Positions 44,926 to 60,003 of a stretch of 64,000 nucleotides of DNA are shown here, one piece after another. The stretch spans positions 36,954,001 to 37,018,000 of the forward strand of contig CM059432.1 of the NCBI GenBank assembly GCA_030390025.1. The letters run 5' to 3'. Source of the DNA: Squalus acanthias. Taxonomy: Eukaryota. The translations under genes and the position numbers were made by a program. Every line of letters begins with the position of its first letter. The first letter of the stretch is position 1. The notes under the pieces are model-generated. The model was not told the DNA's origin. It saw only the letters and a program-made list of their open reading frames with translations, and did no database searches.

Positions 44926-45348
44926 TACCCCATCCACCACCTTAAACATTCACACCCTCCACCACCGGTGTACCGTGGCTGCAGTGTGTACCATCTACAA
45001 GATGCACTGCAGCAACTGGCCAAGGCTTCTTCGGCAGCACCTCCCAAACCTGCGACCTCTTCCACCTAGAAGGACAAGGGCAGCAGGCGCATGGGAACAC
45101 CACCAACTCCAAGTTCCCCTCCAATTCACACACCATCCTGACTTAGAAGTATATCGCTGATCCTTCATCGTCGTTGGGTCAAAATCCTGGAACTCCCTAC
45201 CTAACAGCACTGTGGGAGAACCTTCACCACACGGACTATAGCGGTTCAAGAAGGCGGCTCACCACCACCTTCTCAAGGGCAACTAGGGATGGGCAATAAA
45301 TGCTGGCTTTGCCAGCGGTGCCCAGATCTCATGAATGAATAAAAAAAA
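44926..45348 (+). mobile_element. Family-B LINE 3' end
   Basis: Near-identical to 490-890 and 50885-51297; ends in gaatgaataaaaaaaa. Confidence 0.8.
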
Positions 45349-45349
45349 G

Positions 45350-45806
45350 TCTTTGGGAAAATGCTGGAATCCATTGTTAAGGAAGTGGTATCAAGTCACT
45401 TAGAAAATCATAACATGATTAGGCAGAGTCAACATGGTTTTATGAAAGGGAAATCATGTTTGACAAATTTATTAGAGTTTTTTGAGGATGCAACTAGCAG
45501 GGTAGATAAAGGGGAACCAATGGATGTAGTATATTTGGATTTCCAAAAGGCATTCGATAAGGTGCCACATAAAAGGTTATTACACAAGATTAGGGCTCAT
45601 GGGGTTGGGGATAATATAGTGGCATGGATAGAGGATTGGTCAGATCTTGGCAGGCTGTAACTAGTGGGGTGCCGCAAGGATCAGTGTTGGGGCCTCAGCT
45701 ATTTACAATCGATATTAATGACCTAGATGAAGGGACCGAGTGTAATGTATCCAAGTTTGCTGATGATACAAACCTAGGTGGGACAGTAAGCTGTGAGGAG
45801 AACACA
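45350..45806 (+). mobile_element. CR1 RT internal fragment
   Basis: ORFs 45361-45660 (QHGFMKGKSCLTNLLEFF) and 45624-45860 (KFADDT). Confidence 0.85.
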
Positions 45807-46296
45807 ATTCAGTTGATTAGCGCCTCCCGTTTGTGCCCTAATGGGGCGCAAAGCAACTAGTGCCCGGGCACGGCGATGTTTGCACCGCTCGTGAAATTGA
45901 CCAGAGTTTTTGCGGCGGTGCTAAACTCTACCACCACGATCTCCTGCACCCACAGATCGTGACGTCAGTCGAGCGTGCAACGCCCCAGTAGCGCCCCGGA
46001 CCGGATATTGAGTGGTGCCCTCTTCCTTTCCGCCTGCTGCTAGCAACGACAGGTAGGGGGGACTATTTTGCAGTCGGGAAGGGGCTGGGGGAGCGTTATT
46101 TAAAGGCAGCCTCTTCCTGCCTTTTTTTGTCGGAGACATTTTTGCACTACGCATTCTGAGAGAGAGAGAGAGATTCTGAGAGAGAGATAGAGACTTCTGG
46201 AGAGATTCAACGCTGTGTGAAGGAGTTTTGGCTACTGAGCAGCACTTTGCAGATTCTTTTTGATTTGACCTTCCTTGCATCGATTTAGAAGAGACT

Positions 46297-47447
46297 ATGG
46301 GGGCTGCACTGATTTGGAGCGTCGTCCTGCACCTTCAGAATCGGAGGCATCAGAGACACAGGCAAACATGGCCAGAGGGAAGAGGGCCAACAGGCCTCTG
46401 CACAGGAGACCTTACCCTCCCAGCATATTCCGGGAACAATTCTCCTACTTTCATTTGTCTGAGGAGCAGTGTTTGCGCAGGCTGCGCTTCAGCAAGGAGA
46501 TGGTCACTGAGCTCTGCCACCTGCTGCAACCAGATCTGCAGCCTCAACTGAGGACCAGGACGTCTCTGTCGGTGGCAGTGAAGGTGACAGTGGCACTGAA
46601 TTTTTATGCCACCGGCTCCTTTCAAGCAGCTACTGGGGACACCGCCAATATCTCCCAGTTCGCTGTCCATTGCTGTATCCGGGAGATGACAAATGTCCTC
46701 TATAAAAGGAGACGCCAGTACATCTCTTTCCCCATGACCCGGGCCAAACAGCATGAACGCGCATGTGGCTTTGCTAGGATAGCGGGCTTCCCCATGTTGC
46801 ATGGCGCTATTGACTGCACGCATGTGGCATTGCGGGCACCGCATGAAAATGCAGAGGTTTTCCGAAACCACAAGGACTACCACTCCTTAAATGTCCAGTT
46901 GGTCTGTGACCACAGACAGCTGATACTCGCCGTCAATGCCCGCTATCCTGGCAGCAGCTACGATGTTTTCATCCTGCGCCAGACTGGTGTGCCAGACCTT
47001 TTCCAGGCACCGCATCACCCAAGTGATTGGCTCCTCGTGGACAAGGGTTATCCACTCTGCACCTGGCTGATGAGACCGCTCCGTAACCCCAACACCCCTG
47101 CCGAGCTGCAGTACAATTAGAGCCATCTCGCCACCAGGAACATTATTCAGCAGACGATCGGCGTGCTCAAGCAACGGTTCCGCTGTCTGGACCACTCAGG
47201 AGGAGCCCTGCAGTACTGTCCTGAACGAGTCTCCCTCTTCATAGTTGTATGCTGCATGCTTCACAACCTGGCAATCCTGAGGACCCAGCCAATGCCACCA
47301 GGGATTGGTGCACCACCGGAGTAGGAGGAGGAAGAGGAGGAGGAAGAGAAGGAGGAGGATCAGCAGCAGCACCAAGGTGGGAGGGAGGCCCACAATGTTA
47401 ACACTGCAAGGGCCGTCCGTCAATGGCTGATAACAAGCCACTTCTAG
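46297..47447 (+). pseudogene. Harbinger transposase / HARBI1-like DDE nuclease, disrupted
   Basis: GFPMLHGAIDCTHV...RNHKDYHSLNVQLVCD...RYPGSSYD...WLLVDKGYPL...YN*SHLATRNIIQQTIGVLKQRFRCLD...CCMLHN. In-frame TAG at 47118 and 47322, terminal TAG at 47445, and a likely frameshift between ATG 46297 and the main frame (track ORF 46275-47120). Confidence 0.9.
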
Positions 47448-47758
47448 GCCCCTACTCAGGAGATGGCTTCTGGCATGGAGAACAACATCATGGAAAGCAA
47501 CCCGCAACCCGGACAGCCGGCAAAAGCAGCAATGATTCCAAAGGCCAAACATGTACATTTGAATACAACTTTTTTATTTAACAAACTCTGTGTGTGTCAT
47601 TTATTCATGACAAACTAATAGAAACAAACACAACAAATCATTAATTAACATAACTGGTTCTCACAAGCTGGAGATAAAGGCCAAAACACCAAACAAAAGT
47701 TATCAGGCGAACCTCGACCTTGAATAAAAACATTCCCACCATTTCTTTAGACCTCCTA

Positions 47759-49627
47759 CTATTTGCCCTTCGAGGGTGATCTCCATCCCTTGCGCACTTC
47801 CCCCCTTCCCACCCTACTGCTGCTCCGTAATGGGGCCCCAGTGGCTGCAGCAAGGCTGGTGGAAGGCTGCTGAATGTCAGATCCTGAGAATACAGATGCC
47901 CTTGAAGTATGCCCTTGACCAGCTCTGGGCCTGGAGGCCGCGGCTGCAGACTGCACCAACTCTGCATGGGCGGCAGCAGTCTGGGCTGGCTGTGTTGCAG
48001 GCGGTGGCAAGTGCAATGGGGAAGTGCCAGTGGTGGGAGCAGGAATGCTGTCATCCTGAGAAAGAACAGCACCTCCCTGCTCGATCGACACACTGGCACT
48101 CCCACGGGGCAGCACCTCAGCATCCGGAGCAATCTGCTCGAGCACAGATTGCTGGCCTGCTGCGGCGCCGTGAGAGCCCCGGGGCAATGTGGCCGAACCA
48201 GCGACAATGGCAGCAGTCAGTGCTTGCATTACCTCAATCTGAGACTGCATGAGAGCAGTCTGAGATTGGATCGCAACAGCCAGTGACTGAATTGCAGCAC
48301 TAAGCCATTGCGTTGCGTCGGCCTGTGCTGCAGCGGAGTGCTCCACACTCCTTGCGAGTCCATCAATGCTTTCGGGCACCCTTCCCACTGCACCCATGAG
48401 CTCAGTGTGCATGTTCACCGCCTGGGTGTTCATTTCCGCGATGAGCCGCTCTTCCTCTATGTCCAGTGCAGCAGGACTCGCTGGCCTACTCTCCCTCCAG
48501 GGAGAAGGCCCCCGAGCTTCCCTACTCCCATGGCGTTGCTGCAGCCCCCTGGGTCCCGCAGCTTCACCCTCATCAGACCCTTCCCCCCCGCTCCCCTCCA
48601 GGGAAGACGTGGTCCCAGTGTAGGCTGGGCTCCTTCGGGAGACATTGGCACTGAGGGTCTGGCTTCCTCTTCCTCCTCGCCTGGGGCGTCGCTCCCACTG
48701 GTTGGTTGAGGGACAGACTACTCAGCTGGTGGTTCACTATCTGAAAGCAGGGAGGTACAAGAGTGGCTTTAGCGTCAGGACAGGGGGGCAGTAAGGGAGC
48801 AAGGACTGGAGAGATTTAGTAAGTTGGATTGAAAGTGTAAAAGGCTGGTGTTGTGAGGGACAAGTGGAATGAGAGAGGAGAGGAAGCTGATGAACCTACC
48901 ACTGCTGTACCCAAGGGGGTCGACCTCTCCAGTGGCCACGAGACCTATCACCTGGCTGGCAATGAATCGCCTCCAAATCGCTGAGGGTCTGCAGCTGAGC
49001 CGGCCCTCCACCCGTCCGTTGCTGCTGCCACCTATTATGAGATAGCTTGGCCTGCAAGAAAAAGGACGGTGTCTGAGTAAATGTGCAGCCATGTGCTTGC
49101 CTGATGTGCCTCCCATAGTTGAACAGCCCTTAATGTATGCAGCCATGTGCTTGCCTGATGTGCCTCCCATAGTTGAACAGCCCTTAATGTATGCAGCCAT
49201 GTGCTTGCCTGATGTATCTCCCATAGTTGAACAGCCCTTAATGTATGCAAGGTATGGAACATGCATGTGTGTTTTATGAGATGGCCATAGGTCTTGGATT
49301 AGTGTTGGGCATTTGGGGTTTTTACACCCTCTGGCCATAGAGTGAGGTTGAGATGGAGGGATGGAGAGGTATTGAAAAGCAGCCACACACCCTGACCACC
49401 CGAGTGAGGTCGTTGAACTTCTTCCGACATTGTGTGTGGGTCCTGGGCACCATGCTCCTGGAGGAGACGTGCTGAGCCAGCTCCCTCCACACTCTTCTAT
49501 AGTCGCGGGGCAATGGCCTCCTGCCACTCTGTGGGTAGAGTATTGATCTTCAGCACTCCACTGCACCAACCAGAACCACCAAGGCCCGGTCGCAGAAGCG
49601 CTGAGCTCATTCCCTGGGCCTCTCCAT
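47759..49627 (-). pseudogene. Harbinger Myb/SANT-like DNA-binding protein gene, 3 exons (49627-49391, 49051-48900, 48740-47759), disrupted
   Basis: Exon 1: MERPRE*AQRFCDRALVVLVGAVEC*RSILYP...RRVWRELAQHV...RTHTQCRKKFNDL (trihelix/SANT). Exon 2: AKLSHNR...RTGGGP. Introns are GT-AG with polypyrimidine tracts. Exon 3 is acidic, then Ala/Gln-rich helical (ORF 47759-48433). Confidence 0.8.
49085..49250. repeat. 54-bp tandem repeat x3 in intron 1 of the Myb-like gene
   Basis: tgcagccatgtgcttgcctgatgtgcctcccatagttgaacagcccttaatgta repeated three times. Confidence 0.9.
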
Positions 49628-50189
49628 TGTTCTTTGCAGCAGATTTGAAGTTGAGGTCTGTCCAGGCCGAGATTCAAGGCTGCAATGAGCAGGGTGTGGC
49701 TGGAGAGCAAGATCGACCCTCCCCTTTAAGAACTGGCCGGCACCAGTCTGTCTGTGTTCCATTGCTAACTGACATCACCTGAGCTTCGCCAGCGCTCTGA
49801 GTTAGCGCCTTGCTCCTCGGTGTTAGCACCTTAAGAGAAGTATGTAGCGCCTGATTTAGCGCTCCAATCACCTCCAGAGGCGATAGAAGTCAAGTTTGCA
49901 GTCCCTTTAAATGTTCTGCATGGCTGCTGCCCATGCGCGGTATCTTTTCCAGCGGCAGCAGTTGGTGAGCGGCCTGTGTGGGACCTCCCGATTGGTGTGC
50001 AGCCACACACCCACACACCTTAGGGTGAACATTGGCCATGGCTGATCTGTATCTCAACTTCATTTACCCACCTTCGCTACATTTTCCTTGGTACCCTTAC
50101 CTAACAAAAACCTATTGATCTCAGTCTTGAAAGCTCCAATAGTCCCAGCATGCACAATCTTTTGGGACAGATAATTACAGATTTACCCT

Positions 50190-51297
50190 CCTATCTGAAG
50201 TCAATAGGAATCGGGGGGAAAACGCTCCAATGGTTGCAGTCATACCTAGCACAAAGGAAGATGGTTGTGGTGTTTGAAGGTCAATCATCACAGCCTCAGG
50301 AAATCGCTGCAGGAGTTCCTCAGGGCAGTGTCCTAGGCCCAACCATCTTCAACTGCTTCATCAATGACCTTCCCTCCAACATAAGATCAGAAATGGGGAT
50401 GTTTGCTGATGACTGCACAGTGTTCAGTGCCATTCACAACTCCTCAGATAATGAAGCAGTCCATGCCCGCATGCAACAAGACCTGGACGACTTTCAGACT
50501 TGGGCTGATAAGTGGCAGGTAACATTCGCGCCACAGAAGTGTCAGGCAATGACTATCTCCAACAAGCGAAAGTCTAACCACCGTCCCTTGACATTCAACG
50601 GCATTACCATCACCGAATCCCCCACCATCAACATCCTGGGGGTCACCATTGACCAGAAACTTAACTGGACCAGCCACATAAATACTGTGGCAACAAGAGC
50701 AGGTCAGAGGCTGGGTATTCTGCGGCAAGTGTCTCACCTCCTGACTACCCAAAGCCTTTCTACCATCTACAAGGCACAAGTAAGGAGTATGATGGAATAC
50801 TCTCCACTTGCCTGGATGAGTGCAGCTCCAACAACACTCAAGAAGCTCGACACCATCCAGGACAAATCAGCCCACTTGATTGGCACCCCATCCACCACCT
50901 TAAACATTCACTCCCTCCACCACCGTGGCTGCAGTGTGTACCATCTACAAGATGCACTGCAGCAACTCGCCAAGGCTTCTTCGGCAGCACCTCCCAAACC
51001 CGCGACCTCTTCCACCTAGAAGGACAAGCGCAGCAGGCGCATGGGAACACCACCACCTCCAAGTTCCCCTCCAAGTCACACACCATCCTAACTTAGAAGT
51101 ATATCGCTGATCCTTCATCGTCACTGGGTCAAAATCCTGGAACTCCCTTTCTAACAACACTGTGGGAGTACCTTCACCACACGGACTGCAGCGGTTCAAG
51201 AAGGCGGCTCACCGCCACCTTCTCAAGGGCAATTAGGGATGGGCAATAAATGCTGGCCTTGCCAGCGACGCCCACATCCCATAAACGAATTTTAAAA
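50190..51297 (+). mobile_element. Family-B LINE (CR1/L2 group), 5'-truncated, RT domain
   Basis: ORF 50150-51019 reads WLQSYLAQRK...[20 protein letters not shown]...MFADD...WADKWQVTF. Confidence 0.85.
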
Positions 51298-52699: not shown

Positions 52700-54468
52700 G
52701 GACTAAAAATTCGATAAAGTCCGAAAACGGGCGGTGCCACCGGGGGTTTGGGCAGGGGGGAGGTGAGGTTTGCTCGCACCCACAAAAAGACCGCCGGCAG
52801 CACTGTTATTTTGGTGCTGCCTGCTGATTTAAATGATCGGAGCGCAGAACCTAATGTGCAATTCGCTGTTTCAGGCGGTGCGCTCAGCAGGAGGCCGAAG
52901 GGCAGGTCTAAACTACCTGTGCTGCATGATCAGGAAATTGAGATTTATGAAACTGAAGTGAAATGTTTCTGGTTAAGTTTCTCATGTTTTATAGGTTGAC
53001 AGAGAGGGTATGCAAGATAAATCAAAGCCTAAAAATGTACTAAGCTGTCAGATTTTAAACAAAGCAACCTGTAGTTTAGTTTAGTTTAATTCAACTGCTA
53101 ACACTCTCAATATCTAGCCGGCTAATTTGTCAAGTACAATTATTACTCAAAAAAAGTCATTATTAACTGATTAAATGACTGCAATTTGGGTGGAATCATT
53201 CTAGCAGTTTGAGGTTCCAAATACTTGAAGTTATGAAAAATCATGCAACATGTGTCATAAAATTTATGACTACACCATCTCGTGCAAACATTGGCCCAGA
53301 AATTCGGGTCCCCACGGGTGAGTACGCACTGTGTACTCACCCTTAGGGCCACCGGAAGTGCCGGTTTCGCGCATGCACGGAAAACCGGAACTTCCGGTAT
53401 CTTGAAGGAAGGGGTTCGCGGGTCAACCGCGTGCGCGGGAGAGGCAGCGCGTACGCATCGAACTTCCGCTTTTTTTACAGGTTTCTCCGTGCGGGTAAGT
53501 CCCTAGCAGCTGTGCGTGGAAAAAGCAGGCGCAAGGCCTGCTTTTAACAAGGTAAGAGGTGAATTAAGTAAAATTTAAACATTTTTTCCCAGGTTTATCA
53601 TTTTTAAATACTTTAAAGAAAGGTAAGTTTATTTTTAGCCCCGTTAAAAACTTTAATAAATTTTTTCAAAAATTAAAATTTTTGTTTAAAATAGTTAATT
53701 TATGTAATTTATAGTTATTTTAAAAATGTGATTTTTTTTAACATTTATTTGAAGTTTTACTTAGGTTTTGGGGCCGATCTCTATTCAAAGATTTGACAGG
53801 TCTTCCTGTCAAATCTATGAATGGAGATTCCCTGCTCCGATTGGCTCCCCATGGACCACGTGATCCCAGGGGACGGTGCGAACTAGTTGCGCCGCTGGGA
53901 TACGCGAGCACTGCATACCGGCAGCTGGAGGAGGCCCAGGATTGGAATCTCACGCGGGCCCAGAGCACAACGGCAGGCGCGCTATGTAAGTGCACCCGCT
54001 ATGCTTGCACCCGCGGGAAGCCTCCGACCCGAATTTCTGGGCCGAATATTATTTTAAACAGTGATCAGTTGAGAATGCAAACCTGTCACAGAGCCTGGGT
54101 TCGGTGGGGCTGCACATATTCTGCATAGTTATTGAACACTGAGAGATCAATAGATCTCCTACACTTTCTCCCGGATCTATGCGCTGGCAATGGCTGCACG
54201 CAAGGGTATGCATTGGAGAGGGCGTTAAAAGGAACGGCGACGCCCAAAATCGCTCAGTGTGCGTCAATTCGGCATTGCATGTCGATTGACGTCACCCTCT
54301 TGATCAATAAAACATTTGAGACGAGCACAGACAACAACAGCGCTGCTGACCTGCCCAATACGGCGGCCGCCACGTTCTGCGCCAGAAGTGGGCAGAAGCG
54401 AGGCAGTCGCCATTTTTTCTTCAAAACCGGCCTTAACGGCTGGCACTAAAGGTTCCAGTTTCTAGGCC
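52700..54468. mobile_element. Non-autonomous Harbinger-type element interrupting a CR1
   Basis: Imperfect TIR GGACTAAAAATTCG / GGCCTAGAAACTGG (rc), flanks ttt / tta. Minus-strand CR1 sequence continues on both sides. Confidence 0.6.
53293..54043. mobile_element. 751-bp MITE with perfect 18-bp TIR (Harbinger/Tourist-like), nested
   Basis: GGCCCAGAAATTCGGGTC at 53293-53310 and its exact reverse complement at 54026-54043; CpG-rich arms and an AT-rich core. Confidence 0.8.
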
Positions 54469-59508: not shown

Positions 59509-60003
59509 CTCCTACCTCCCCCTGGATCATGACCTCAGCACCGAACATTAAGCCATCATTTCCAAGAATGTCACTGACCTCACCTCCTCTGGGATCTTCC
59601 CTCCACGGCCTCCAACCTCATAGTCCCCCAACCCCGCAAAGCCCGCTTCTGCCTCTTTCCCAAGATCCACAAACAGGACTGCCCCGGTAAACCCATCGTT
59701 TCACCCTGTTCTTGCCCTAAGTTCTTCCTATCTTGATTCTATTTTTTCTCCCCTTATTCCTACCTACATCCACAACTCTTCCAAAGTCCTCCACAACTTC
59801 AACAGTTTCCAGTTTCCTAGCCCTAACCGTCTCCTTTTCACCATGGACGTCCAATCCCTCTACACCTCCATCCCCCACCAAGACAGCCTGAGGGCGTTCT
59901 GCTTCTTCCTTAAACAGAGGCCCAATCAGTCCCCATCCACCACCACCCTCCTCCGCTCCTCCGCCTGGCTGAACTTGTGATCACATTGAACCACTTCTCC
60001 TTT

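Follow-up and report, generated by a model that had tools for sequence, protein, structure and literature searches.

Does a stretch of elasmobranch DNA in which a HARBI1-like nuclease gene runs towards a spliced Myb/SANT gene hold a transposon, a pair of host genes or two unrelated fragments? We addressed this question for a window of 64,000 nt of Squalus acanthias (GCA_030390025.1, contig CM059432.1, 36,954,001-37,018,000; "the window" means this whole stretch, and positions are counted from its first base). A preliminary description had proposed a two-gene Harbinger element, with a DDE nuclease on the plus strand converging on a hidden spliced Myb/SANT gene on the minus strand. Our analysis bears this out, as both Pfam domains were found and one homologue matched the three Myb exons in order. 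We conclude, with a probability of about 0.93, that positions 45808-49903 (~4.1 kb) represent a dead copy, with damaged ends, of a Harbinger-type cut-and-paste transposon that was once autonomous and that belongs to a very abundant family of elasmobranchs.

Three defining features of a PHIS element with two open reading frames (ORFs) are present: a DDE_Tnp_4 transposase ORF and a Myb/SANT second ORF, both in one multi-copy mobile unit. An autonomous element has two intact ORFs and a complete DDE triad; the window copy has five stops and three frameshifts spread over both genes, and Gln at the Glu position. Decay is thus heavier than had been described. This copy is able to supply neither protein and has drifted since its insertion.

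The two genes and their lesions

The nuclease gene on the plus strand had been given as one frame, 46297-47447. This cannot be so, because the span is 1151 nt; the ATG and the DDE domain are in different frames, and two TAG stops interrupt the gene. A frameshift near 46357-46369 improved the alignment score for three of the five homologues tested, and the ATG begins an MGA start, as in P0001 and P0002. Read from 46371 to 47444 with X at the stops, the gene product matched the whole DDE_Tnp_4 profile of Pfam (1-158) at 123.7 bits (cut-off 24.8). The catalytic Asp residues at 46812 and 47040 are retained, and the third catalytic position (47148) is Gln; 30 of 50 homologues have Glu there.

A protein search returned 183 nuclease homologues among 360 candidates, the best from sharks and rays (72% over a 249-aa query; 66% over 357 aa). 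Nearly all of the first 102 homologues listed are shark or ray models named 'putative nuclease HARBI1', two being without a name. We built a tree with 50 homologues hand-picked from the 120 listed, with no authenticated HARBI1 among its rows. The window protein fell inside a supported clade of 22 rows (97/94), the remaining 21 being diverse Pristiophorus models, and outside the short-branched clades that span several species. Solved structures gave 6 matches, all at E of at least 0.32 and none meaningful, and none of the 68 and 6 pattern matches in sequence collections was a relative of the nuclease.

Two of the cross-species clades are of interest in their own right. P0032, P0038 and P0071, Harbinger-type nucleases of Pristis pectinata, Scyliorhinus canicula and Chiloscyllium plagiosum, are 88-90% identical on very short branches, and P0032 and P0038 have 52-55% identity to the window nuclease. 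Judged by sequence conservation, they represent a candidate domesticated gene of sharks and rays. P0003, P0014 and P0015 (Heptranchias, Narcine and Mobula) form a second conserved nuclease clade (72-85% identical) and are likewise a candidate domesticated nuclease.

On the minus strand, exon 1 is 237 nt long, exactly 79 codons followed by GT, as the preliminary description had it. Its trihelix/SANT domain matched Myb_DNA-bind_5 at 31.9 bits (Pfam cut-off 21.7), while Myb_DNA-bind_4 gave 25.7 bits, under its cut-off of 27; the profile searches suggested for the two reconstructed proteins therefore each produced a match. Using exon 1 for a library-wide search, we obtained 46 proteins at E<=0.001. 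When these were compared with the window (E<0.01), 44 of the 46 matched exon 1, 5 matched exon 3 and 1 matched exon 2. P0124 matched all three exons in their order; the alignment of its residue 140 starts precisely at 49051, a position directly preceded by AG, and its residues 254-553 correspond to exon 3 (39%, E 2e-30). As sole query, exon 3 had yielded no homologue at E<=0.001 among 8000 scored candidates, and it was matched later via the Myb homologues. The source of another Myb homologue, P0121, is Narcine bancroftii. Repeated domains occur in P0122 (three), P0123 (two) and P0130 (twelve short repeats), and these proteins may have arisen when gene prediction merged transposon pieces standing in tandem.

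Intron 1 (49391/49051) ranked best of 70 GT-AG pairs when compared with the homologue. A 54-bp unit is repeated inside it (49084-49249; 3.1 copies at 98% identity). Intron 2 is probably bounded by 48900 and 48740, and the splice signals described for the two introns (GT, AG, GTAGGT and polypyrimidine-CAG) are all present in the sequence. Alternative acceptors of intron 2 at 48717 or 48720 came top when one frameshift was allowed (whole-model score 767), but we preferred the 48740 acceptor, whose model with two frameshifts reaches 789-793 and which has a polypyrimidine tract.

With both introns removed, the Myb frame measures 1371 nt; it requires two frameshifts that compensate each other, in exon 2 at 48937-48967 and in exon 3 at 48609-48663, where contigs indicate 48625. 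This model outscored the model without frameshifts for all five homologues, and its identity to P0124 is 46% over 439 columns. It holds three stops, two TGA in exon 1 and a TAG in exon 3. The TGGGP motif ascribed to exon 2 is there, as are the acidic stretch and the Ala/Gln-rich helix ascribed to exon 3; the latter two lie in different frames, however, and are joined only through the frameshift.

Polyadenylation signals had been proposed at ~47722 (plus) and ~47575 (minus) in the 311-bp gap between the converging stop codons. AATAAA does occur close to these places on both strands and once more on the minus strand, but 3.6% of 2000 shuffles of the gap also have it on both strands, so that the finding is suggestive only. 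We infer that these hexamers may have served as poly(A) signals, in which case the 3' UTRs of the two genes would overlap, as had been proposed.

Copies of the family and alternative readings

The evidence that the two genes belong together comes from other copies. Among 24 public sequencing runs listed, 20, from 7 studies, contain part of the stretch, and 16 of those 20 contain 29-45% of its words (organisms A-E and three unlabelled runs). We compared contigs from four runs with it at 85% likeness. The matching contigs numbered 94,689, 46,237, 1,946 and 2,368 per run, covered all 30 bins and were mostly 90-95% alike. Because there are tens of thousands of variant contigs, the family has many divergent copies, though depth itself is no copy number. 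Sequence collections yielded no other copy; a 21-nt motif had no match in metagenome and viral contigs.

A recurrent joint, ~46310 to 49601, fuses the starts of both genes, so that the opening 14 nt of the nuclease frame abut the opening 27 nt of the Myb frame. Its loose ends were found in all four runs and the joints in three. The product is a deletion derivative without 46311-49600 that retains at least 503 + 303 bp. Because this derivative fuses their starts, the two genes belong to one element, which answers the earlier question of whether they travel together. The contigs also show which lesions are private to the window copy: the exon 3 TAG is missing from 96-100% of contig depth, and at +4 of the intron 1 donor, which has drifted to GTGTGT in the window, A stands in 98-100% of the depth in the four runs (row 49387).

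Several observations weigh against our interpretation. None of the listed contigs covers both genes, the longest listed piece being 450 bp. We found no terminal inverted repeat (TIR): inverted pairs at a minimum of 11/14 bracketing the genes numbered 31, compared with 26-101 in 10 control region pairs. Nor was a target site duplication (TSD) found, the two flanks being different repeat pieces, so that two defining features were not recovered in the window copy. With only one frameshift allowed, the 48900/48740 junction was outside the ten best and other junctions ranked higher. The extra base at 48625 is present in all depth of runs X17 and X19 but in less than 1% of that of X1 and X2. In two runs presumed to be RNA, no splice-like GT-AG joint appeared among the 15 joints listed out of 168, which is no evidence either way. 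Finally, one sign of decay is rough: of the 40 substitution rows listed, 26 are coding (21 residue-changing, 5 not), which is near the ratio of about 3:1 given by unselected drift, but the 40 were chosen by support from 654.

The lack of termini, and of a listed contig spanning both genes, would fit a chance mosaic in which the nuclease gene of one element came to lie tail to tail with the Myb gene of another. We regard this as very improbable, since the frequent derivative fuses both frame starts in all four runs, cover is continuous over all 30 bins and the hexamer TAGCGC is enriched at both ends.

Harbinger genes have been domesticated repeatedly in vertebrates (PMC9392472), and some shark and ray relatives, namely P0032, P0038 and P0071 from a ray and two sharks, appear domesticated. 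The locus might by analogy be a host gene pair like HARBI1 and NAIF1, its cellular role kept or recently lost. Domesticated HARBI1 and NAIF1 are single-copy, intact and under purifying selection, whereas this element is multi-copy and broken. A host gene is hard to reconcile with the five stops and three frameshifts, with variant contigs in the tens of thousands per run and a deletion derivative, with the LINE (long interspersed nuclear element) fragments flanking the element on both sides, and with the position of the window protein outside the short-branched clades, in a tree without authenticated HARBI1. Copy number and lesions largely refute this explanation, to which we assign even less weight than to the mosaic.

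Just as negligible is the idea that the copy is still competent, its apparent lesions being errors of assembly or being circumvented through alternative splicing or read-through. The two Myb frameshifts do compensate, giving a spliced length of 1371 nt, and the first two catalytic Asp residues remain, but both conserved domains are interrupted by in-frame stops, the third acidic residue has been replaced by Gln, substitutions elsewhere look unselected and the right end is cut.

We therefore retain the decayed transposon. As a decayed member of a known superfamily it is nothing unusual, and its family is possibly uncatalogued. The novelty of that family, raised in the preliminary description, is weaker than was implied, as two papers on shark genomes already report PIF-Harbinger and nucleases of related sharks' models abound in protein databases.

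Ends, proposed mechanism and neighbouring repeats

The limits first given for the element, 45807 and 49904, are sound in that homology to the family stops there. No true termini were found at these places or recovered for the family, and other copies run past 49903. In X2, 33 contigs extend beyond this position with letters absent from the window, including further TAGCGCC motifs. As no termini were found in the copy, an active system is unobtainable from it alone.

Both ends have features of their own. The ratio of observed to expected CpG is 0.92 in the first 293 bp and 0.39 in the window as a whole. In the two end zones we counted TAGCGC 5 times, whereas shuffles average 0.31 and none of 2000 reached 5; since the motif was chosen from the same end zones, the enrichment is a lead only. 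The subterminal 9-bp motif of the zebrafish element Harbinger3_DR (PMC9710019) makes TAGCGCC, by analogy, a plausible candidate for a Myb-binding site.

How the intact ancestor would have moved can be proposed on this basis. It would have had two converging genes transcribed inward from its ends, the first an intronless DDE transposase gene of about 383 codons and the second a three-exon gene for a Myb/SANT protein of about 456 codons. In Harbinger3_DR, the Myb-like protein binds the ends, contacts the transposase and brings it to the nucleus, and transposition needs the two proteins (PMC9179366). We infer the same mechanism for the ancestor: its Myb protein would have bound repeated end motifs, which in this element were probably TAGCGCC, and taken the transposase to the nucleus, and the transposase would have excised the element and inserted it elsewhere. 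The same proteins would have mobilised the short derivative that has both ends and lacks 46311-49600.

Coordinates of the element, its parts and its immediate flanks are collected in Table 1.

Table 1. Features of the Harbinger-type remnant and its flanks (window positions)
Feature	Position	Strand	Remarks
Harbinger-type (PHIS) DNA transposon remnant	45808..49903	.	family contigs in all 30 bins, 4/4 runs; right end cut
Left subterminal and 5' region of nuclease gene	45808..46296	+	first 293 bp CpG-rich; TAGCGCC motifs at 45818 and 45989
Broken DDE_Tnp_4 (HARBI1-like) transposase gene	46297..47447	+	ATG 46297; frameshift near 46357-46369; TAG stops at 47118 and 47322
AT-rich gap between converging stop codons	47448..47758	.	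AATAAA at 47723 (+), 47573 and 47600 (-)
Myb-like exon 3	47759..48740	-	acidic stretch, then Ala/Gln-rich region; TAG 48720-48718, frameshift near 48625
Intron 2 (predicted)	48741..48899	-	GTAGGT donor after 48900, polypyrimidine-CAG acceptor before 48740; phase 1; less firm than intron 1
Myb-like exon 2	48900..49051	-	152 nt, with TGGG motif and one frameshift; P0124 residues 140-166 match from 49051, 63%
Intron 1	49052..49390	-	phase 0; 54-bp repeat inside; donor GTGTGT in window copy
Myb-like exon 1	49391..49627	-	79 codons with Myb/SANT trihelix domain; codons 7 and 26 are TGA stops
Right subterminal and 5' region of Myb gene	49628..49903	-	TAGCGCC-type motifs at 49803, 49824, 49845, 49857 and 49879; cut at 49903
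Left flank: LINE reverse-transcriptase fragment (RVT_1), broken off at element	45343..45807	+	RVT_1 match
133-bp tail outside abundant family	49904..50036	.	depth 78-138 at 49913-49923 (X1, X2) against about 1e5-1e6 inside element

The LINE fragment on the left, which we take to be CR1-like, is cut at the element: LINE copies extend beyond 45807 (17 contigs of X19), and other window copies of this LINE stop matching at 45807. The tail on the right is GC-rich, and its far end has a 10-base motif in common with a junction at 53286-53296; the tail is possibly the end of another small element. Another repeat, presumably a LINE 3' piece, starts at 50037. Two LINE 3' pieces that are 95-98% identical (44927-45271 and 50885-51221) flank the element about 5950 bp apart, the second coming after a 304-codon RVT_1 frame at 50105-51019.

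Farther to the right, 53293-54043 is a 751-bp non-coding element with internal palindromes and a perfect 18-bp TIR starting GGCCCAGAAATT; the 3 bases outside its arms differ from each other. It looks like a Harbinger-type miniature inverted-repeat transposable element (MITE) of another family. Terminus-like motifs of the GGC..GAAACTGG type lie on the minus strand at 54451-54468 and 59805-59822, preceded by TAA and TAG, and no partner ends for them were found.

Comparison with known systems

Two-ORF PHIS elements have been divided into PIF/Harbinger (TSD TWA), NuwaI (CWG), NuwaII (C|TNA|G) and Pangu (ANT) (PMC4482050). The window element shares with them the DDE ORF and the Myb/SANT ORF, and its length compares with autonomous averages of ~4124 bp for PIF/Harbinger and ~4462 bp for NuwaI (PMC4482050). 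Because these groups are defined by their TSD, and none was found for the window copy, the element cannot be named to one of them.

Among proteins, close counterparts are the shark and ray 'putative nuclease HARBI1' models (Pristiophorus japonicus, Heptranchias perlo, Heterodontus francisci and others), many Pristiophorus models standing in the same clade. As no match exceeded 72%, the protein collection searched holds no near-identical protein for the window family. These models bear the name of the domesticated gene, though many look like transposon copies, as the locus suggests. The domesticated HARBI1 and NAIF1/MSANTD genes have the same two domain types and derive from such elements, but are intact host genes, with MSANTD shown to be syntenic (PMC9392472), unlike the multi-copy, broken window element.

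Domesticated genes and other expansions of Harbinger have been described in vertebrates (PMC9392472, PMC5741667, PMC8437027). Harbinger-Snek of sea kraits is likewise an abundant vertebrate Harbinger with two proteins and short non-autonomous variants (PMC8437027). It differs in being reported as recent and horizontally acquired. In cartilaginous fish, PIF-Harbinger is listed for the whale shark as a repeat class only (PMC8455134), and among the DNA transposons of the grey reef shark, Tourist and Harbinger types are the most frequent, again at the level of repeat class (PMC12498223). The 2022 survey in PMC9179366 did not detect Harbinger in the elephant shark and urged that other cartilaginous fish be checked. 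We found no detailed shark Harbinger family in the literature as judged by titles and the starts of abstracts, a search outside which lay most subscription papers and the supplements of PMC8455134 and PMC12498223.

As a single copy, the window element has little weight, being one dead member of a known superfamily. Its modest addition concerns one family in a thinly described group, for which the locus provides the structure of the genes, a motif that is a candidate for Myb binding, and a deletion derivative. It is possible, though we hold it doubtful, that this is an undescribed, very abundant elasmobranch Harbinger lineage present in at least five organisms, with its own MITE-like derivative of at least 0.8 kb and a TAGCGCC end motif; that a functional two-component transposon, new in its binding and target specificity, could be reconstructed from copies elsewhere that are sufficiently intact; and that the wider group gave sharks and rays the domesticated nucleases of the P0032/P0038/P0071 and P0003/P0014/P0015 clades.

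Among the closest known systems is zebrafish Harbinger3_DR, reconstructed by Sinzelle et al. 2008 (as cited in PMC9710019, PMC9179366 and PMC9392472). The window element is by contrast a broken copy without termini, likened to Harbinger3_DR by design and not by sequence, and TAGCGCC is only a candidate motif. The two have in common the two-gene design of a DDE transposase and a Myb/SANT protein, and a repeated subterminal motif expected to bind the latter. Should there be intact copies, this family could be developed into another vertebrate Harbinger tool alongside Harbinger3_DR.

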